A stretch of 64,000 nt of DNA, taken from Isurus oxyrinchus. Lineage: Eukaryota. The notes beneath the pieces are model-generated. The model saw only the letters and a program-made list of their open reading frames with translations, searched no databases and was not told the origin of the DNA. The stretch spans positions 87,978,001 through 88,042,000 of the forward strand of contig JANJGN010000008.1 of NCBI GenBank assembly GCA_026770705.1, read 5' to 3'. Numbering within the stretch: position 1 is the first letter of the stretch; each line of letters starts with the position of its first letter. A program made the position numbers and the translations under genes. Positions 1-56,169 of this stretch are shown in pieces.

Positions 1-852
1 ATCTAATTTTGTATAGGATTTGCCTCCAGCTAGCTTTGCATATAAGTTATCTATCCGTGGAATGGGATACTTGTCTAGTTTGGTTGCCTTGTTTACAGTC
101 AATTTATAGTCCCCACAAATGTGTATGGTTTGGTCAGGCTTAACCACTGGAACTATGGGTGTTGCCCATTCTGAGAATTGGACAGGCTGGATGATGCCCA
201 ACTTTTCTAACTGGCACAGTTCTGCAGCCACCTTATCCTTCATTGCATAAGGCACAGGTCTGGCCTTAAAGAAACGTGGTATCGCCTGAGGATCTATATA
301 TATTTTTGCTTGCAAGCCTTTTAACTTCTTTTATTCATCCTGAAATACACTTTCATATTTCCTTTGCAGTTCAGGAACTCTTCCTGTTTTTCAGGTGAAA
401 TATTTCAGACCAGTCAAGCTTGATTTTCTGTAACCAGCCCCAGCTCAGAAGACTGGGTCCTTTTCCTGTCACTATCACTAGAAACTGGGCTGTCTATTAA
501 ACACCGGTACTGTAGCGATGCTCTTTACCTGAATAGACTCTCCAGTGTATGCCTTCAATTTAGTGGTTGTCTGCTCCAGATTTATTGGCTGGGTACCTTC
601 ATTTAGGTATTTAAATGTGTGCTCTCCCACCACTGTCGTTGAGACTCCTGTATCTATCTCCATCATTAGTAGCTTCCCATTAACTTGGATGGTGACAGTG
701 GTAGGTTCAGTTGTTACAGCGCTGACATTATACAGGGAATAGATGCCTGTGCCACCAGCTTCAAGTTCTGTTGTACTTTTCAATTCACTCCTGTTAGTTT
801 GATGCTTTTTGGGCTGTTTCGACTTCACCCTGCGTTACCTTACAACATGACC
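1..852 (-). mobile_element. Ty3/Gypsy LTR retrotransposon: gag 3' end, aspartic protease and start of reverse transcriptase (degenerate); continues at 5548
   Basis: Minus-strand translation gives the protease motif MEIDTGVSTTVV (ORF 478..828). Bases ~1-280 read PVPYAMKDKVAAELCQLEKLGIIQPVQFSEWATPIVPVVKPDQTIHICGDYKLTVNKATKLDKYPIPRIDNLYAKLAGGKSYTKLD, the typical Gypsy RT N-terminus. Stops and frameshifts are present. Confidence 0.92.
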
Positions 853-1403
853 ACCGACTCCCACAGCTACCTCGACTACAGCTCCTCACACCCCGCTTCC
901 TGTAAGGACTCCATCCCATTCTCTCAGTTCCTTCGCCTTCGTCGCATCTGTTCCGATGATGCCACCTTCAAAAACAGTTCCTCTGACATGTCCTCCTTCT
1001 TCCTTAACCGAGGTTTTCCACCCACGGTCGTTGACAGGGCCCTCAACCGTGTCCGGCCCATCTCCCGTGCATCCGCCCTCACGCCTTCTCCTCCCTCCCA
1101 GAAACATGATAGGGTCCCCCTTGTCCTCACTTATCACCCCACCAGCCTCCGCATTCAAAGGATCATCCTCCGCATTTCCGCCAACTCCAGCATGATGCCG
1201 CCACCAAACACATCTTCCCTTCACCCCCCCTATCGGCATTCCATAGGGACCGCTCCCTCCGGGACACCCTGGTCCACTCCTCCATCACCCCCTACTCCTC
1301 AACCCCTTCCTATGGCACCACCCCATGCCCACGCAAAAGATGCAACACCTGCCCCTTCACTTCCTCTCTCCTCACCGTCCAAGGGCCCAAACACTCCTCT
1401 CAA

Positions 1404-1733
1404 GTGAAGCAGCATTTCACTTGCATTTCCCCCAACTTAGTCTACTGCATTCGTTGCTCCCAATGTGGTCTCCTCTACATTGGAGAGACCAAACATAAAC
1501 TGGGTGACTGCTTTGCAGAACACCTGCGGTCTGTCCGCAAGAATGACCCAAACCTCCCTGTCGCTTGCCATTTTAACACTCCACCCTGCTCTCTTGCCCA
1601 CATGTCTGTCCTTGGCTTGCTGCATTGTTCCAGTGAAGCCCAACGCAAACTGGAGGAACAACACCTCATCTTCCGACTAGGCACTTTACAGCCATCCGGA
1701 CTGAATATTGAATTCAACAACTTTAGGTCGTGA
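1404..1733 (+). pseudogene. GIY-YIG endonuclease domain in the upstream pseudo-LTR copy
   Basis: ORF 1404..1733 reads NLVYCIRCSQCGLLYIGETKHKLGDCFAEHLRSVRKNDPNLPVACHFN...EEQHLIFRLGTLQPSGLNIEF, with the PLE-type CCHH residues. Confidence 0.88.
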
Positions 1734-2121
1734 GCTCGCTCCTCCATCCCCAACCCCTTTCTGTTTCCCCCTTCCTTTTTTTTTTCCAATAAATCATATA
1801 GATTTTTCTTTTCCCACCTATTTCCATTATTTTTAAATATCTTAAAATCTTTTATGCTCTCCCCACCCCCATTAGAGCTATACCTTGAGTGCCCTACCAT
1901 CCATTCTTAATTAGCACATTTGTTTAGATAATATCACCAACTTTAACTCCTATGTGTTCTATTGTTGTTGACATCTTTTGATGATCTGCTTCTATTACTG
2001 CTTGTTTGTCCCTACAACCACACCCCCCCCCTCCACTTCTCTCTCTCTCTCTCTCTCTCCACCCCCCCCCGACACACCTTAAACCAGCTTATATTTCAAC
2101 TCTTTCTTGGACTCGAACTCA

Positions 2122-2160
2122 AGTTCTATCGAAGGGTCATGAGGACTCGAAACGTCAACT
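2122..2160 (+). ncRNA. Minimal type I hammerhead ribozyme motif, copy 1 (core mutated to CUAUCGA)
   Basis: AGTT-CTATCGA-A-GGGTC-ATGAG-GACTC-GAAA-C-GTC-AACT: stem I AGTT/AACT, stem II GGGTC/GACTC, palindromic ACGT stem III, GUC site at 2154-2156. Minimal HHRs in PLE pseudo-LTRs are established. Confidence 0.7.
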
Positions 2161-2308
2161 CTTTTCTTCTCCGCCGATGCTGCCAGACCTGCTGAGTTTT
2201 TCCAGGTAATTCTGTTTTTGTTTTGGATTTCCAGCATCCGCAGTTTTTTTGTTTTTATCTTTTTGTTTTTATCTCTGTGTTTAATTGACTGCCACTGCTC
2301 TTCAAGAA

Positions 2309-5055
2309 ATGCCTACCTCCTTGAAGAAGTTCTGTTCTTTTCTGCGACAAGATTTCCGTTCCTCTCTTTTGCCTTGCTCACCTTCATTGCTTTCCATTTC
2401 CCTCCTGGTGTTTGACAAGGTGTTTACTAAAACCCGCTTTCACAGCCATATCTCCTTTCTCAGTGATTGTCTCCGTCTCCGACTTACCCCACGTGGATTT
2501 CAACTGAAATTCCACACCTCGTGTTTCGAACCCACCCAGGATTACAGGTATCTCCGGGACATAAAACGTTTCTCGGACTGCTGTTCCCGTCACATTCTGA
2601 AATCCACATTCAGTGCCATGCGCCGCCATATGAACACACTCGACCTCTCCCTCCAGCAGCATCGCCGTACCCTTTTTCAAAGCTGCGCGTGCCCCCAGTT
2701 TCATTTTATTCTTCGGCTCATCCGACGCCTCAACAAGAAACTTTTTCTCTTTCTCTCAAGTGATAAGGAACGCAAGCTCCAACAACTCATCAACACCAAC
2801 ACCCATCTAGGACCTTCCACCCCTGCCCATCCCTCCGTCCCCACCCCATCTTCCAATCCCAGCCCCAGCCGTGTATTCACTATACTCCCTGACCTTCCCC
2901 TCTCCGATGCTGAACGTTCAGTGCTCAGCAAAGGACTTAGTTTCATACCCTTACGCCCTCACCTCAATGAATTTCGGGCTCGGCATGATGCTGAACTCTT
3001 CTTCTGCCGTCTTCGTCTCCGGGCTCACTTCTTTGGGCAGGAGTCCTCTACCAGTTCAACGGATCCTTTTACCCATCTCCAATATTCTCCCTCTACCTGG
3101 ACCCCTCCCTCTGGATTCTTGCCTTCTCTTGATCTTTTCATTGAGAACTGTCGGCGCGACATTAGTCATCTCAATTTCTCTGCTCCTCTCACCCATTCTA
3201 ACCTGTCTCTGAACTTACTGCACTCCATTCTCTCAGGTCCAACCCTGACATTGTCATCAAACCTGCTGACAAGGGTGTTGCTGTTGTTGTCTGGCGCACT
3301 GACCTCTACCTCGCGGAGGTTGAGCATCAACTCGCAGACACTTCCTCCTACCTCTCCCTGGACCATGACCCGACCACTGAACATCAAGCCATTGTTTCCA
3401 GGACTGTCACTGACCTCATCTCCTCTGGGGATCTTCCTCCCACAGCTTCCAACCTGATAGTCGCCCAACCTCGGACGGCCCGCTTCTATCTCCTACCCAA
3501 AATCCACAAACAGAACTGCCCCAGTAGACCAATCGTCTCAGCTTGCTCCTGCCCCACAGAACTAATTTCTCGTTATCTTGACTCCCTTCTCTCTCCCCTT
3601 GTCCAGTCCCTTCCCACCTACATCCGTGATTCCTCTGACACCTTACGTCACATCAACAATTTCCAGTTCCCTGGCCCCAACCACTTCCTCTTCACCATGG
3701 ACGTCCAATCCCTCTACACCTCCATCCGCCACCAGGATGGTCTGAGGGCCCTTAGCTTCTTCCTCGAACAGAGGCCCGAACAATCCCCATCCACCACTAC
3801 TCTCCTCCGTCTGGCTGAACTTGTTCTCATGCTGAACAATTTCTCTTTCAACTCCTCTCAATTCCTCCAAATAAAAGGTGTGGCTATGGGTACCCGCATG
3901 GGCCCCAGCTATGCCTGTCTCTTTATGGGGTATGTGGAACATTCCTTGTTGCAGTCCTACTCCGGCCCCCTTCCACAACTCTTTCTCCGGTACATCGATG
4001 ATTACTTCGGTGCCGCTTCATGCTCTCGTCGGGACTTGGAAAAATTTATTAATTTTGCTTCCAATCTCCACCCCTCCATCATTTTCACGTGGTCCATCTC
4101 TGACACTTCCCTTCCCTTCCTTGACCTCTCTGTCTCAATCTCCGGTGATAGACTGTCCACCAATATCCATTACAAACCCACCGACTCCCACAGCTACCTC
4201 GACTACAGCTCCTCACACCCCGCTTCCTGTAAGGACTCCATCCCATTCTCTCAGTTCCTTTGCCTCTGCCGCATCTGTTCCGATGATGCCACCTTCAAAA
4301 ACGGTTCCTCTGACATGTCCTCCTTCTTCCTTAACCGAGGTTTTCTACCCACGGTCGTTGACAGGGCCCTCAACTGTGTCCGGCCCATCTCCCATGCATC
4401 CGCCCTCACGTCTTCTCCTCCCTCCTAGAAACATGATAAGGTCCCCCTTGTCCTCACTTATCACCCCACCAGCCTCCGCATTCAAAGGATCATCCTCCGC
4501 CATTTCCGCCAACTCCAGCATGATGCCGCCACCAAACACATCTTCCCTTCACCCCACCCCTATCAGCATTCCATAGGGATCGCTCCCTCCGGGACACCCT
4601 GGTCCACTCCTCCATCACCCCCTACTCCTCAACCCCCTCCTATGGCACCACCCCATGCCCACACAAAAGATGCAACACCTGCCCCTTCACTTCCTCTCTC
4701 CTCACCGTCCAAGGGCCCAAACACTCCTCTCAAGTGAAGCACTTGCATTTCCCCCAACTTAGTCTACTGCATTCGTTGCTCCCAATGTGGTCTCCTCTAC
4801 ATTGGAGAGACCAAATGTAAACTGGGCGACCGCTTTGCAGAACACCTGCGGTCTGTCCGCAAGAATGACCCAAACCTCCCTGTCGCTTGCCATTTTAACA
4901 CTCCACCCTGCTCTCTTGCCCAAATGTCTGTCCTTGGCTTGCTGCATTGTTCCAGTGAAGCCCAACGCAAACTGGAGGAACAACACCTCATCTTCCAACT
5001 AGGCATTTTACAGCCTTCCGGACTGAATGTTGAATTCAACAATTTTAGGTTGTGA
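2309..5055 (+). pseudogene. Penelope-like RT / GIY-YIG polyprotein ORF, disrupted
   Basis: The N-terminal ORF from 2285/2309 frameshifts near 3205-3210 in a CTCT run into the frame running NPDIVIKPADKG...RYIDD (YIDD at 3991-4002). There is a premature TAG at 4426-4428 (CAG in the upstream copy), a 9-bp deletion near 4740 and further frameshifts before the EN stop. Confidence 0.9.
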
Positions 5056-5444
5056 GCTCCCTCCCCCATCCCCACCCCCTTTCTGTTTCCCTCTTCCTTT
5101 TTTTTTCCAATAAATCATATAGATTTTTCTTTTCCCACCTATTTCCATTATTTTTAAATATCTTAAAATCTTTTATGCTCTCCCCACCCCCACTAGAGCT
5201 ATAACTTGAGTGCCCTACCATCCATTCTTAATTAGCACATTCGTTTAGATAATATCACCAACTTTAACTCCTATGTGTTCTATTGTTGTTGACATCTTTT
5301 GATGATCTGCTTCTATCACTGCTTGTTTGTCCCTACAACCACATCCCCCCTCCACTTCTCTCTCTCTCTCTCTCTCCGCGCTCCCCCCCCCCCCACGCAC
5401 CTTAAACCAGCTTATATTTCAACTCTTTCTTGGACTCGAACTCA

Positions 5445-5483
5445 AGTTCTGTCGAAGGGTCATGAGGACTCGAAACGTCAACT
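5445..5483 (+). ncRNA. Minimal type I hammerhead ribozyme motif, copy 2 (core CUGUCGA)
   Basis: AGTT-CTGTCGA-A-GGGTC-ATGAG-GACTC-GAAA-C-GTC-AACT, with the GUC triplet at 5477-5479. It lies at the 3' end of the PLE. Confidence 0.78.
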
Positions 5484-5547
5484 CCTTTCTTCTCCGCCGA
5501 TGCTGCCAGATCTGCTGAGTTTTTCCAGGTAATTCTGTTTTTGTTTT

Positions 5548-6389
5548 TGACCTTTTTTATGGCAGTTATGGCATTCTGTTTCTAATCTGCAGGTGCCTGG
5601 GCCGTGGTCACCCCCACATCTATAACAAATTAACCTTGGAGTCACTGCTGATGTGTTTCTACTAGGCCTTTTCATATTTTTAATAATGGACATTGCCTCT
5701 CACTTTGATACTGTGGGTCTGGTTTTTGTGCCACCCCCAGTGGTAGGTTCCCACTCCACATGAAGAACAGCGCCATGTTGTATACGTTGTAAAGCCTGTG
5801 AGTCTCTCGCAGTATTTTCCATGGTGAGTGCTATTTCCAGGATGCACTTCAAATCAATGTTGATCCTTGCAAGTAAACGGCCCTGAATTGAGAACTCCAC
5901 AAACTAAACGGTCCTGCAGCATATCATTTAGTGTGTCCTCAAAGTCACAGTGTTCTGTCACCTGCTTCAGCTTCACTACATAGGTTGCATTGGACTCTCC
6001 TGTGGCCTTAACTCTGGAATTAAACTGAAACCGCTGCATTATTATGGATGGCTTTGGCTGGAAATGCGTTTTCATGAGATCCACTAATTCATTAAAGGGT
6101 TTAGAATTGGGCATGTTTGGGGCCATCAGGCTGTGAATGAGGTTGAATGTCTTGCCACCACATACACTCAGTTGGATGGCTTTCTGCTTTTCCTCCATGG
6201 TAATTTCATTCACTATGAAATAAAAACCAAGGTGCTCCTCATACTGGCTCCAGTCTCCAATAGTCGTATCGTAAGGATCAATTCTGCCAAAGAGTGGCAT
6301 GACTGGTGAGTAGTCTTTTCTTTTTTCTTTGGATTTAGTGTACTCACATTAGCAAGGCAGCGTGGAGCTATTTTACCCTGGTTGCCAAA
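5548..6389 (-). mobile_element. Gypsy gag (degenerate) with leader and primer-binding site
   Basis: ORF 5854..6300 MPLFGRIDPYD...QRFQFNSR...VKLKQVTEHCDFEDTLNDMLQDRLVCG is Gypsy gag. Zinc knuckles CYRCGGDH and CHNCHKKG lie at ~5550-5630. A PBS-like TGGCAACCAG (minus strand, 6378-6387) sits just inside the LTR. Confidence 0.9.
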
Positions 6390-29837: not shown

Positions 29838-29955
29838 ACATTTATACCACTCTTCAGCTCTGAAGAAGTCATATGGACTTGAAGTGTTATCTCTGTATCT
29901 CTCTCCGCAGATGCTACCAGACCTGCTGATTTTTTCCAGCATTCTGTGTTTTTAT
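29838..29955 (+). ncRNA. PLE terminal region with degenerate hammerhead (canonical CUGAAGA core)
   Basis: CTGAAGA-AGTC-ATATG-GACTT-GAAG-TGTT followed by the PLE tail GATGCTACCAGACCTGCTGA...TTCCAGCATTCTGTGTTTT; GAAA is mutated. Confidence 0.6.
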
Positions 29956-37535: not shown

Positions 37536-38903
37536 AAAAGTGTATCTTTTGCTTCTTCTAACAGGTGAAGGTAGACGTTGCATTCAGAAGATATGCAATA
37601 TGTACACAATTTTCCAGGATGGATCAGCAGCATTTAAGCGAGCCAGGTGGTAGAAAGCTACTTAGTCAGTCTGGAGGAAATAGATTTCTGGACTCTAAAG
37701 GCATCAAGGGGTGTAGGAAGAGAGCAGGAATATGGCATTGAGATAGAGGATCAGCCATGGTCCCTTTGAATGGCGGAGCAGGCTCAAGGAGCTGAATGAC
37801 CTACTCCTGCTCCTATTTTTCTATGTTTTCTATGTAAGAAAATCTATTTTGTTCTTTTTCAAAATTATCTCAAGACAGCCAGTAGACAAACCTCAGTAGG
37901 TTTATTCGGGTAGAACTGCATAATGAATATTTTAGAAAGGGAGAGGCTGTCACTGTAAAAAAATATACACTTGTGTGCATGCGATAATGAGATATTTTCC
38001 TTCAGAAACCTTCAGAAAGCATATTAAGCTGAGCAACAGACGTAGGCGCATCCTTGTGCTGGAATGCTGCTCCATGGATTTCTGTGGCCCAGCAATCTGA
38101 CTCCAGTCACTACAGTTTGCAAATCATGTGGCTGTGTTCATAGTTTTAAACAGGTAAAGACTAAAAATAAATACATGGGTAAAGTTATATATGTTTAAAA
38201 TAAAGGCTGGTTATTTTTGCTATGGAGAGACTTGTGGAATTCACACCCTGGAGTACCATTAGATAAGAATTTGACTTGTTCAGTCATTGTAAATCAGTGG
38301 CCTTGATCAATGGTCTAGCATGGAATAAACACCACTATTGTTATAAAATAACATAATTTCAACTTGCTGTGTCTTAGCAGATCTGTTCGTATCAGAGCAA
38401 TTCTTGGCACTCCCTGTTGTCACGAATTGATAACTTCCAGTTAAGACTGGTAACACTTGGGTAATGCTTCAATTAGTAACATCGAATCATAGCATCTTGC
38501 AGCTCAGGAGGAGATTGGACTATTTCTATTATGGGCAATGGATCTGCATCGCCAGTTTTATGTCCAGGCAGTTGGTTTAAAATACCACCATCACCACCGT
38601 CGCCCTACCCCACAAGGTTCCCCCCCTCCCCCCCACCCCCCAACCACCCAACACCCCCCATCCCCCTCCACCCTTACCCCTCATTACCATGAGCAAAGCT
38701 GTGAAAGAGTCACTGGTAATGTTATTAAACCACAACATCGAACATGCATTTCTGGTCTGTCACACATCAAGTGTCACACTTCACTTTCTGTGACACAGTT
38801 CAAAGGAAAGTAGAGAAAGAGATAAAGGAAATTTCTAAGAACACAAAATACCAGAGTCAAGTTGTCTGCAGTATCTTAATGACCTCTGTACAAACCTAAG
38901 TTG

Positions 38904-39134
38904 AAAACAAAGAAAACTGCGGATGCTGGAAATCTAAAACAAAAACAGAATTACCTGGAAAAACTCAGTAGGTCTGGCAGCATCGGCGGAGGAGAAAAGA
39001 GTTGACGTTTCGAGTCCTCATGACCCTTCGACAGTTCTGTCGAAGGGTCATGAGGACTCGAAACGTCAACTCTTTTCTCCTCCGCCGATGCTGCCAGACC
39101 TACTGAGTTTTTCCAGGTAATTCTGTTTTTGTTT
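38904..39134. mobile_element. Fold-back mini-element derived from the Penelope terminal/hammerhead region, with 14-bp TSD
   Basis: Perfect 98-bp inverted arms 38937-39034 / 39037-39134 with a TT spacer; near-identical to 2126-2223; TCTGTACAAACCTA at 38885-38898 and 39134-39147. Confidence 0.92.
39033..39071 (+). ncRNA. Minimal hammerhead ribozyme motif in the right arm of the fold-back element
   Basis: AGTT-CTGTCGA-A-GGGTC-ATGAG-GACTC-GAAA-C-GTC-AACT, identical to 5445-5483; GUC at 39065-39067. Confidence 0.72.
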
Positions 39135-39825
39135 CTGTACAAACCTAGTTTTGCATAGCAGTGATTAAATCTTAATAGCCTCACCAAGATACATGCATAC
39201 ACACTGTTGCAGAGCAATAATACATCATGCTTCAACCATTATAAAATTATTGTGAACTATGCGATGTGAGTTTGTTAGTAATATGACAAAAAGGTATATC
39301 TAACGTGCATTTCCTGATCATCACCCTTCTCTGTCACACTTCAATGTCTCACTCAAATACATGTATGTATCATACTTAGAAAAAACAATGGCAGCTATTC
39401 TGCCTGGGATCCAGACTGCCTGTAAGCTTTGAGAAAACTTAACAATCATCACTTACGAGGACCTATAGACTGGAAAGTAACCAAATCCTGGCATCGCACA
39501 GTATGTGCCTAACAGTAATTAGAATTTGAATTCTTAATAGGGCACATCTTAGCAGCAGAAAGGTACATTATGGACAAATGGTGGTGTTCCACAAGGATTG
39601 GAGCTGGTGACCGCTTTTGTTTACTATTTATATAAATGCTTTGGACTTGGCATACAATTTTAAAATTTGTGGGTGAGCTTTACAGTTAGTACAGAGGAGG
39701 ACTGCGACAAAATACAGGAAGACATTAATAAATGGGCATGTAATTGGGAAATAAACATCAATTGAGTTATGTGTGAGTAATATATTTTGGTAGGAAGAAT
39801 AAGGAGTCATATTCCTTGAAAATTA

Positions 39826-51959: not shown

Positions 51960-52690
51960 TATTCTAATTTCTAATTTTGAAATTCCAGAAGTTCTCATTT
52001 GCAAGTCCCTCCATGGCTTCACTCCATCCCCCCTCTGCAACCGCCTCCAGCTGTACATCCCAGCTCATTCTATCCCACTCTTATATTGTCCTGCAGCCCT
52101 ACATCCCAGCTCATCTCTGCTTTGATGATGCTTGGTTTCCGGCACGCCTGCTCCCGTCCCATTACTCTGTCCCCTGTTAACCTGGTATTCTTCCATTCTA
52201 CCACCAGTGGAAGACTTGACAGTCATTATATCTCAGCACTGTGCAAAAATAAAAACAAAGAACTGCGGATGCTGGAAATCCAAAACAAAAACAAAAACAA
52301 AAATACCTGAAAAACCTCAGCAGGTCTGGCAGCATCGGTGGAGAAGAGCACAGTTGATGTTTCAAGTCCTCATGACCCTTCAACAGAAATCACCCCTTTC
52401 CTATTTTTACTTAGTTCTGTTGAAGTGTCATGAGGACTCGGAACGTCAGCTGTGCTCTTCTCCACCGATGCTGCCAGACCTGCTGAGTTTTTCCAGGTAT
52501 TTTTGTTTTTGTTTTCATGTCAGCACTGTGCAGTTCTGTTCCAAAATACCACTGCATTGTTAAACCGTCTTTCCCATCTTCTAAAGCCTATTCTAGCAGC
52601 CAATTCTTATCCTATTGCCTGGTCAGTGACTGCACACTCTTTTGAAGTACCTTGGGATATTTGCTATGTTAATGCTGTCTGGGTTCTTTT
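51960..52690 (+). mobile_element. L2 LINE 3' remnant interrupted by the fold-back element
   Basis: CAAGTCCCTCCATGGC...CCTGCAGCCCTACA...CCTTGGGATATTTGCTATGTTAATGCT resembles an L2 3' end; the reverse-orientation relative is at 57015-57400. Confidence 0.6.
52246..52517. mobile_element. Second fold-back PLE/hammerhead mini-element with 13-bp TSD
   Basis: Inverted arms ~52288-52388 / 52415-52515 with about 7 mismatches and a 26-nt spacer; TCAGCACTGTGCA at 52233-52245 and 52520-52532. Confidence 0.9.
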
Positions 52691-55129
52691 ACCGCATCTG
52701 GGAAAAATGGGTGCCTTAAATCATGTGTTTTTAATGGAATTCAAAAAGAATGCTTTCCTGATGTTATGAGGCTTTTTCCCATATTTTTCCCTTCTTCATT
52801 CTCGACTTATTCTAAAGGAAAATCCATATTTGGGGAATGGTTTTATAGACACTGAGTTTTATCCCCCCCACCGATTGTTGACTCACCCAGGCATGATAGC
52901 CCCACTATTTGCATAGCTGCACATCCCAGCAGGAATCTCCCTATAATGATCCGGAGTGGGAACCCTGCTTGATTTCGCTTTCCCCTTCCAAGTCAGTGGT
53001 CCTGAGGCCAACTGTAGCACCCCTAATATCAAATTGGCTAAGGTGGCTACCACTCAGAGACCAGGAATGGAATTTGGGGCCTTCTGGTCTGCCTACCTTT
53101 TTCAGCTCCCCCTATTTGTTCTTATTCTTTCTTGGAAAGTGCTGACTCTCACAGGGCCACCATTCAGAGCGCATCAGCTGACCTTCAGTACCTCACACAA
53201 GTGCCCATTCTGTATCCTTGAGCCCACACAGCAATCCTTGGCAGGTTGTTCTACCTCAGCAGATGCAAAGGCATGCTAGATACCAGCCTTGCTAGACTTC
53301 CAGGCATGTGACCGGATAAAGAACACAAGCTGTAATTCTGAACTATACTTCCTAGGTAGATCCCAAATACTACATAGGTGGTGTTATATTTGACAATGGA
53401 GAAGAAAATGGGCAGAGTGTAAATGGAATGCTGAATTGCTAGTGCCTATTCTGTGCCATAATGCAAGACTAGTTTTGTGTCCGAGAACTATAGCTGATAT
53501 TCTTTCTTCCCTTCTTACCTACATCCTTAGCTCAGGGACATTGAAGCCAATTGGTAACACCACCAATGTTGCCCCGCCCAAGATCAACCAAGCCAACACA
53601 GACCAGATTTAGGATCTACCTGAAACTATGGTTGGGAATTACATCACATGGTTTATTTATCCACGGAGCAAGTTTGGGGTTGGGGGAAGCACTATCCAGA
53701 GGAGTTTTGTTTAAGCTAGTGCACCTTATATGAGACAACAGTGAAGCATGGCAGTGGGCTAAAATTGGGGAATTGTTTGGCAATATGACCACTGTATAGA
53801 ATTGGGGTGGGATTATTTGGGAACTTTGCAGTTTATTTCTTGCTTCTTGTTTATCCTCAGCTTTGGTGTTTCACCAAATACTTGGGAAGGAGATGGTTTG
53901 AGGAAATGTTGCAAAGTCTATCTGTCAATGATGCATGTACCCTGGAGTATAAATTTGTTTTGTACTATTGCCTGTTTGGCACTGCAGCCCACAAGGAAAT
54001 TATGTGCCTCTGATTCTCAGCATACAAAGTGCAGGAGGAGGACCGCTTTGTATGTACACATCTGAGGTGGCTGGACAGTACATGGGCTTCCAATTGGAGC
54101 TGTGCAAGTAAGGTTGGGGCAGAAGTTAATGGAAGGAGATCATGATGTTGGATAAATGCGGGGGAGAGAAGATGTTAAGTCCATCCTACTTTGTCCATCC
54201 AAGTGTACCTAGAGTATTCCATCATAACTTCCAGCTGGTGCTTAGTGTTCCAGGATTTTTGTCTCTTACCCAACATCCCGTTAATTTTTTATCGATTGCT
54301 TGTAGATCTTGACATATTGTTCTCTGTACATTGGCCCTATTAAAGGATCTTGCTGACTTTCTGGAGGTAATGCCAGTCTTTCTAACAGGGTTGAGATCAC
54401 TAACACTGACAGTAAACGGCTTGGCATCTGGGATTATTTTGTGTGCAATGTGGAAATTGGCTTGGGCTCCAAATTTCCATATGGTAGGACTGATGAAGGA
54501 TGGATTGCTTTAGACTGGTTAGGATTGTCACAAACTTCAGTACTTTCAACATGCATAACAAGGGCATGTATGCACAAGGACTTAATTAGAACAGTAACGA
54601 CCTTCTAATTAAGTCTTCCAAAGATGGTGTGTAAATTGTCCTGCTCAGTTTGGGCCTTTAATTATTCTGTTTACATCTGTATTTTTTTCCACTTTCATTT
54701 CCAATACCTTTTCAATACTTGGATGTACAAAGTCTTCCTTGTCAGCCTGTCTCCCTGCTTCAATAATGTATTACTTTGTGTGGGGCACAACCAAAATTTA
54801 TCGGTGCTTACCCTCATTATCGCATCTGATTCCTCTCAAGCATGGGCATGCTGCCCATTCGTGGTTGGAAACTCTGACGTATTGCCTCAGTGACTAAGTC
54901 TCTTTTTATATGCGTGTTCCTTTCAGAAAAGATGACTCCTGACAAGCATGGATGGGGGACACATAGTGGAACTGCAATAGGGCAGGGCAACAGGGCATGA
55001 TTTCACTACCAGAGGGACTTATAGTTTAGTGTCTTTTGATATGTAGACTGGAATTAGCCCCTAATGCCGATGGGATCTTCCGTTCCCGCCGACGTGTACG
55101 GAGATTTCAATGGCTCACCGGTCCTGTCA

Positions 55130-55378
55130 CGGTGGGGTGGGGGGGGTGGTGTGTGGGGGGGATAGGGGGTGGTGGGGGGGATAGGGTGTGGGGGGGATAG
55201 GGGGTGGTGGGGGGGATAGGGGGTGTGGGGGTGGGGTGGTGGGGGGAATAGGGGGTGTGGGGTTGGGGTGGTGGGGGGGTTAGGGGGTGGGGGGGTGGTG
55301 GAGGGGATAGGGGATGGGGGGGGTGGGGGTGGGGTGGTGGGGGGGATAGGGGGTTGTGGGGGGGGAGGGTGTGGGGCT
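55130..55378 (+). repeat. G-rich tandem array (GGGGGTGGTGGGGGGGATAG-like units) inside a small MITE-like element (~55047-55393)
   Basis: About 250 nt almost devoid of C, with many G4-G8 runs; weak inverted ends GACTGGAATT / GATTGCAGCC. Confidence 0.85.
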
Positions 55379-56169
55379 GGAAGATTGCAGCCTTGACAAC
55401 CTGGGCTTCAAAGCTCAATTTGCATTTCTATATGTTTTTTATTTCCTGGTTTAGTGGGTTTGTGGGCCCGGTGGGTTGGAAAGGATGGCATTGGCCTCGA
55501 TGCATTGTACTCGCACCAAGATTTGGTAGTTTCAATGACTTGTGAGACAGGGAAATTAATGAAACCTCAATTTATATGCCACTCTCTGGGCCCCATACAA
55601 CTGTGTGACACCCTGAACACCCCCGATTTAAGTACATCTTGATGTCTAGAATTCAGTGCGATGGAAGTGGCTGTGACTTTGAGAGGAAAATGGAGTGCAG
55701 GGCAGTGGAATGTGATTCCACAGTCCTTCACTCAATTATGCCCAGAAATCCAGTGTTGCTCATTAAACTACTGTTTCAAATATATTGAGGTTTACAGCAA
55801 CCTTGTAAGTGGTTCTTCCTGGATGGTGTCAGATTTCATGAGCCTCTGTGCAAACTGCATGTCTTGCCATCTCTAACTTTAGAATAGAACTGTGCATCCA
55901 TTTGTAGCCTACCTTCCCCTTCACCTGATCCCTTCAGGAGACCTATTCCTCAGGTACACTTGGCCCTCTGTTCTGATCCTGAACCCATTCCCCAGACCTA
56001 GCCATGAGATGTCAAGTCAGGATTCAAAGAGATCTTTCTACTATTTTTTTTTAACCTTTGAGTGAGAAAAAATGGGAAAGAGTGTGCCAGTGGAGAACAT
56101 GATCTGAAGGCACTGTTACACCCATCACCACACAGTAAGTGAAGGAGGCCTGTTAAATTAGAATGATCA

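Follow-up and report, generated by a model that had tools for sequence, protein, structure and literature searches.

The combination of inverted pseudo-LTRs (pLTRs), a one-sided tail, a target-site duplication (TSD) and palindromes at the junctions has already been described for Penelope-like elements (PLEs) (PMC3846280, PMC8557442, PMC8969392). Head-to-head inverted ends that meet in a junction palindrome are found in Pen2a of Adineta vaga (PMC3846280) and in Penelope of D. virilis (PMC2377424; overview in PMC8557442), and EN+ PLE insertions have the tail at one end and the TSD around the whole unit (PMC3846280, PMC8557442, PMC2377424). The mechanism behind the inverted pLTRs and one-sided tails is termed undefined in PMC8557442, and a self-priming model has been put forward for head-to-head PLE palindromes (PMC3846280). 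In Poseidon of Anolis carolinensis (PAc), both target strands are cut and extended, and reverse transcription has two start sites, one on either side of the tail; insertion in vitro does not need the ribozyme, and inverted copies are left unexplained in the available text (PMC11167929).

Metazoan PLEs also carry minimal type I hammerheads, which have a short stem I, an extra base between positions 9 and 10.1, a G10.1-C11.1 pair and palindromic positions 15-16, and in Schistosoma pairs of such motifs lie on opposite strands 100-700 bp apart (PMC4209133). Non-LTR retrozymes are non-coding, hammerhead-bearing and derived from PLE pLTRs, and are built of units that follow one another head to tail, each with its own ribozyme (bioRxiv 10.64898/2026.07.22.740005).

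Here we analyzed a hairpin inside a 64,000-nt stretch of the Isurus oxyrinchus genome (the window, meaning that whole stretch). As in EN+ PLE insertions, it holds an inverted 5′-truncated copy joined head to head, its tail of 38 nt compares with the 30-40 bp of their one-end tails, and a TSD surrounds the whole unit. Unlike those insertions, stubs such as this one have no remaining ORF and occur in thousands, and the mode of their TSD lengths is 14 bp, while 8-10 bp are given for Adineta (PMC3846280). The two outer ends recall the two start sites of PAc, which lie inside the ORF (PMC11167929), whereas those seen here precede the first ATG of the copy in the window. The hairpin shares its non-coding, hammerhead-bearing, pLTR-derived nature with the retrozymes, but it is not made of repeated head-to-tail units that all hold a hammerhead, its arms being head to head with at most one usable motif per strand; a head-to-tail dimer does exist at a related locus. 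The layout itself is already published, and the added value here is a mechanistic tally.

RESULTS

Structure and insertion of the focal hairpin

On recheck, the 98-bp arms around a 2-nt spacer (38937-39034 and 39037-39134) are exact reverse complements, as a preliminary description of the locus had reported, the same 14-mer flanks them on both sides, and both arms carry the two changes noted there relative to the PLE ends at 2126 and 5449 (Table 1). The insert spans 38899-39133 (235 bp), with base 39134 doubling as the first TSD base, and a chance origin is set aside by z = -33.5 against 200 shuffles. The left arm does run further than the right one, although by 38 nt and not the ~33 nt first given, and the extension is fully templated by the source subfamily. 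Similarly, the right arm does stop near the end of the full PLE, whose copy in the window matches out to ~5550, but the short arm is 1-4 bases short of it and not "within a base".

A 798-nt contig of DNA run X2 joins 38884 straight to 39134 with one TSD copy and has 1 differing letter in 402 flank bases. This empty allele, from one contig of one run, confirms that the hairpin is a real insertion that arrived as one unit, and it points to a recent event. The assembly artefact considered in the preliminary description was ruled out by the same contig (one contig, one run; the filled allele is the assembly sequence). The interpretation in the preliminary description is partly supported, namely in the PLE origin and in the insertion as a single unit through PLE enzymes.

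Table 1. Features of the window, in order of position (positions are those of the whole 64,000-nt stretch)
Feature	Position	Strand	Remarks
Related full-length, frameshifted PLE unit, RT + GIY-YIG, partial tandem	2126..5550	+	RVT_1 E 7.9e-8, GIY-YIG E 1.3e-4
Left 14-bp TSD copy	38885..38898	.	Equals 39134-39147; single copy in the empty-site contig of run X2
38-nt PLE tail, the start of the next unit's 5′ UTR	38899..38936	-	Ends at the distal preferred arm end, ~+130 to +135
Left arm: PLE pLTR end and minimal hammerhead motif	38937..39034	-	Stem I 5′ strand missing on - strand
2-nt spacer	39035..39036	.	Fits a 2-nt microhomology join, arm to -4 plus arm to 0
Right arm: PLE pLTR end	39037..39133	+	Ends at the nearer of the two preferred sites, ~+94 to +98
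Hammerhead motif in right arm	39033-39072	+	Stem I restored via the junction
Right 14-bp TSD copy	39134..39147	.	Base 39134 also fits the arm
Second, older head-to-head hairpin, sister subfamily	~52245..52518	.	101-nt arms 93% complementary, 26-nt spacer

The parent element and the source subfamily

The PLE unit at 2126-5550 has a detectable RVT_1 domain and a GIY-YIG match that reaches its cut-off, and its reading frames are broken. It shows 3-4 differences from the focal arm, placing it in the same family with another haplotype, and for this reason it is not the direct source of the hairpin. The focal long arm with its tail (38899-39034) is instead identical at 136/136 positions to both unit junctions of a tandem array (L209) on contig C1 at ~462-469 kb (L209 3710-10000 plus L210 1-502). 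The units of this array, ~3.35 kb each and 99.5% alike, have the focal haplotype, with an open frame of 918 codons in one and of 815 codons in the other; the 918-aa product matches RVT_1 with E 6.9e-8 and GIY-YIG with E 8.9e-4, just under cut-off. The parent family encodes an RT with a C-terminal GIY-YIG endonuclease, and tandems that form pLTRs are seen both in the window (2126/5449, partial) and in the L209 units. Because the long arm is identical to an ORF-bearing array, the two changes shared by the arms mark a young coding subfamily and not a hairpin lineage.

No host exon was found among the 20 of 41 long frames that were scanned, the sole match being a piece of LINE endonuclease. About half of the sampled words of the PLE stretch at 2085-2800 are present in a coral metatranscriptome run (X16), which may be contamination.

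A genome-wide population of stubs

The 4.98-Gb genome has 84,897 exact 16-mer hammerhead cores, 42,109 of them with the 17 nt upstream kept exactly. Exact head-to-head junctions whose spacer is no longer than 30 nt number 6,128 and take in 12,256 cores (14%). These core and junction counts are lower bounds, as the motifs were exact, and reversed-pattern controls gave 0-3 matches over the abundance counts and 0 for both junction counts, that of 6,128 and that of the focal junction, which occurs 1,109 times.

Two samples were read closely, namely 51 head-to-head junctions (the first 50 among the matches listed plus the focal one) and 71 copies of the focal junction (the first 70 among the 1,109 plus the focal copy), with six loci common to both and nearly all of the sampled places on contig C1. 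The 51 junctions have 34 spacer types and comprise 20 microhomology joins of 1-2 nt, 9 blunt joins and 22 with inserted bases. A tailed arm is present in 50/51, the exception being L037, while the second end of L027 is blurred by alignment, and arms extend into the ORF in 3 of them.

Exactly one arm is tailed in 71/71 copies of the focal junction, on the left in 38 and on the right in 33 (binomial p 0.64), and the left:right split is 25:26 for the common haplotype, 4:5 for A17 and 3:1 for the focal one; T49 copies likewise occur with either tail side. Long arms end at ~+130 to +135 and short arms mostly at ~+94 to +98, where 0 is the base with which the hammerhead core starts. A premature stop is seen in 15/60 mapped short arms, where the overlap with the target is slightly greater (2.5 vs 1.3 nt). 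TSDs measure 12-16 bp in 63/71 copies, and all 66 TSDs of ≥10 bp differ from one another. Arms mismatch at 44 of 5,017 sites, and 41/71 pairs are perfect.

The focal junction sits on at least 4 haplotypes, the focal haplotype carries five junction types and recurs both among the long inverted insertions and in the array of coding units, and the focal hairpin has no private mutation against that array. Junction, orientation and haplotype are not inherited together, with one exceptional pair: a particular 18-nt complex junction occurs in L152 1406-1626 and L153 1406-1626 (contig C1, 25.72 and 25.84 Mb) and nowhere else. A distance of 123 kb separates the two, which share their strand but differ in TSD and in the side that bears the tail. 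Either gene conversion or re-copying, at a local scale, could be behind this pair.

Other loci depart from the simple layout. At L040 (525-902), the tailed arm is a head-to-tail dimer of a short unit with two sense hammerhead motifs, resembling a retrozyme, and may come from a template jump. L196 holds three separate stub hairpins within 4.3 kb (348-4618), which suggests local clustering of insertions.

Long inverted insertions and agreement between arms

From the core listings, 20 pairs of minus and plus cores within ~4.5 kb were taken and read by eye (a separate search for long focal-haplotype copies gave 37 matches and missed the focal subfamily, which has another upstream word). Each of the 20 is a single insertion, tailed at one end, with a TSD of 12-16 bp. 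The arm that extends further upstream is the tail-less one in 9 pairs and the tailed one in 9, with one pair equal and one complex, and in 6/20 the tail-less arm is longer than the tailed one by >100 nt.

Diagnostic variants of the stubs agree between arms in 17/17 and 19/19 comparisons, from two overlapping sets. In 18 longer pairs, 46/57 non-CpG and 12/24 CpG-type recurrent variants agree, an overall agreement of 0.72 vs 0.12 when permuted, and arms of kilobase length with a large central asymmetry also have variants in common. These tallies favour one RNA as the template for both arms, while the variants that disagree (11/57 non-CpG and 12/24 CpG-type) speak against a single shared template. 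Arm agreement, together with the balanced orientation of spacers, could also come from template switching inside the palindrome after insertion.

Two further loci, L194 (1336-2516) and L175 (314-1692), combine a short terminal unit, a copy broken ~1 kb into the ORF and an inverted stub within one TSD.

The inner end and the putative RNA 5′ end

Arms stop at -4 to -8 in 64/102 cases, 44 of these at -4 or -5. In windows of equal width, 6,128 junctions fall at this inner-end peak, 422 upstream and 462 downstream at the ribozyme cut site, a ~14-fold ratio that is rough given that the three counts used different exact motifs and missed some subfamilies. Solo arms with their own TSD begin at -4 (L192 4394-4496) and at -10 (L193 4223-4334), and the template-jump tandems of L194 and L040 begin at -4 to -10 like them, so the inner stop is independent of the palindrome. 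Position -5 is preceded, at a distance of 31 nt, by a TATA-like word, and the promoter and transcription start of Penelope are within the pLTR (PMC2377424). The inner end at -4/-5 is likely the RNA 5′ end and transcription start, as judged from these positions, and a stall of the RT or a nuclease cut at the ribozyme edge would fit it too. L192 has an untemplated C at its start, which might be the trace of a cap; untemplated C after arm ends was considered as a cap trace more generally and set aside as too ambiguous.

The hammerhead motif

The core reads CUGUCGA, with U at what we take to be position 6 in hammerhead numbering, and thus departs from the conserved CUGANGA...GAAA. A6 is conserved in hammerheads. 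An older PLE-like end at 29866-29953 of the window has a hammerhead core with the canonical A at this position, and judged from it the U looks like a derived variant; no report on A6U in hammerheads was apparent by title or abstract start. The motif otherwise has the extra base after A9, the G10.1-C11.1 pair, the palindromic 15.2-16.2 and the short stem I of the described minimal hammerheads, and it occurs in opposite-strand pairs as they do, although here they lie directly next to each other, each motif being paired to the opposite arm (PMC4209133).

The 5′ strand of stem I survives on the + strand only, and the full transcript is predicted to fold into one long stem (-194 kcal/mol) with a pair probability of 0 for stem II. 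Isolated hammerhead segments gave no ribozyme shape in ViennaRNA (z 0.0-0.7), which is neutral and expected for a dimer-dependent motif, and in Rfam no part of the window matched a hammerhead family, the matches being chance ones of microRNA precursors to the second hairpin. No second junction peak is seen at the ribozyme cut site, where the count resembles that of the upstream control, and only 1 of 50 junctions listed in the cut-site window is a blunt join exactly at the cut. The hammerhead core that the preliminary description saw on each strand is there as far as the core boxes go, and no further, given the U at A6, the one-stranded stem I and the predicted locking in the hairpin; little or no cleavage is predicted. 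With an altered core, a locked stem and no cut-site peak, the hammerhead is best seen as a passenger in this model.

DISCUSSION

Our main reading, to which we give a probability of roughly 0.7, is that the hairpin consists of two head-to-head ends of a young PLE laid down in one twin-priming event, and that it is a predicted dead end. The GIY-YIG endonuclease would cut the target with a stagger of ~14 bp, and each target 3′ end would prime cDNA on one RNA molecule, one at the +97 site and the other at the +132 site, in keeping with the two preferred outer ends at ~+97 and ~+132. With priming at the sites nearest the RNA 5′ end, which likely is the transcription start at -4/-5, both cDNAs would run off there after only 100-135 nt, and would then be joined via 0-2 nt of microhomology or short inserted patches before host repair fills in the rest. 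The hammerhead would be carried along owing to its place between the priming sites and the 5′ end of the RNA. The layout of the stubs matches that of insertions up to 4.5 kb, and the stubs likely arise anew, from the same short piece of RNA copied onto both cut target ends. The focal locus is probably an ordinary, dead by-product of a known kind, which agrees with the fallback reading of the preliminary description, a stereotyped by-product of PLE reverse transcription.

In LINE-1 twin priming, both target strands prime on one RNA and leave an inverted 5′ part inside the TSD, in a minority of events and with a variable internal site. The stubs resemble it in the two strands priming on one RNA and in the inversion within the TSD, but here this looks like a main route, with a preferred second site, and it is because this second site is preferred that the arms overlap and form a palindrome. 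Our literature search found no twin-priming model for PLEs and no mini hairpin stubs treated as a class, and subscription journals, supplements and older Penelope papers may hold one.

Snap-back self-priming, in which one cDNA folds at its 3′ end and copies itself, is close to the published model (PMC3846280) and would explain the identity of the arms at once. The 1-2 nt of microhomology at 20/51 junctions and the long pairs whose arms begin at one base (L189 at -1029, L177 at -167) are in line with it. However, an arm copied back can neither gain a tail nor outreach its template, and two priming events are therefore needed where the tail lies on either side of one junction (38:33) and where the tail-less arm exceeds the tailed one by >100 nt (6/20 long pairs). 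In addition, an obvious 4-bp fold-back just upstream of the core accounts for 0/51 junctions, and zero-loop palindromic joins are common. Our tallies thus favour two priming events over the self-priming proposed for Adineta (PMC3846280), and we regard the snap-back route, which the preliminary description had also offered, as quite unlikely.

Slightly less unlikely, though still doubtful, is an origin from cDNAs of separate RNAs, or from a longer inverted insertion trimmed at its center, with palindrome repair evening out the arms later. Palindromes are known to be prone to central deletion and template switching, which speaks for this origin, as do the recurrent sites that disagree in some long pairs. 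Repair of this kind sits poorly with the mismatches that the arms retain (44/5,017, with only 41/71 pairs perfect), with the common variants of kilobase arms despite a large central asymmetry, and with the solo and tandem copies that start at the same place without any palindrome.

The preliminary description favored a non-autonomous family of ~235-bp ribozyme hairpins that spread from their own RNA, and this is the least probable of the origins considered. The 1,109 copies of one exact junction, the L152/L153 pair and the presence of arm sequence in contigs of run X15, only guessed to be RNA, can be quoted for it. Against it, junction, tail side and haplotype are uncoupled, with the focal junction on at least 4 haplotypes and five junction types on the focal one, and the hairpin has no mutation that the coding copies lack, its long arm being identical to ORF-bearing copies. 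The variable junctions and the arms matching autonomous PLEs that the preliminary description named as signs of one-off products are what we found (34 spacer types in 51 junctions, 136/136 identity to L209). Furthermore, by analogy with the anole protein (PMC11167929), a stretch downstream would be required that is missing from the hairpin, which stops at the priming site, and the ribozyme is predicted to be unable to fold in the full transcript. The balanced tail side alone would be compatible with a junction inherited from a master copy, but the mixing of haplotypes on one junction calls for many separate origins. That the PLE enzyme has copied a minority of hairpins anew, with transcripts of these hairpins as the template, giving an incipient non-autonomous family, is very doubtful as well, though a shade less so than the spreading family; L152/L153 offer the one lead, for which local gene conversion is at least as good an explanation given that both are on one strand and 123 kb from each other.

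While the focal locus is ordinary as an element, its population is a testable clue to PLE integration, as the family supplies thousands of young, countable PLE insertion events. If twin priming is true, it would link a genomic layout to the two start sites seen in vitro for the anole element, argue against self-priming and mark the RNA 5′ end without RNA data. The genome would also gain thousands of near-perfect inverted repeats of ~100 bp, some still polymorphic, which might give rise to double-stranded RNA or to fragile sites.

Other features of the window

The second hairpin (52245-52518), absent from the preliminary description, has one tail and a 13-bp TSD as read by eye. Its spacer resembles the upstream sequence of the sister subfamily; directly ahead of the hammerhead, it closes with a run of pyrimidines followed by AG, as a splice acceptor does. 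At 55120-55390, the window also has a G-rich, irregular short tandem repeat of ~270 bp, a possible G-quadruplex former.
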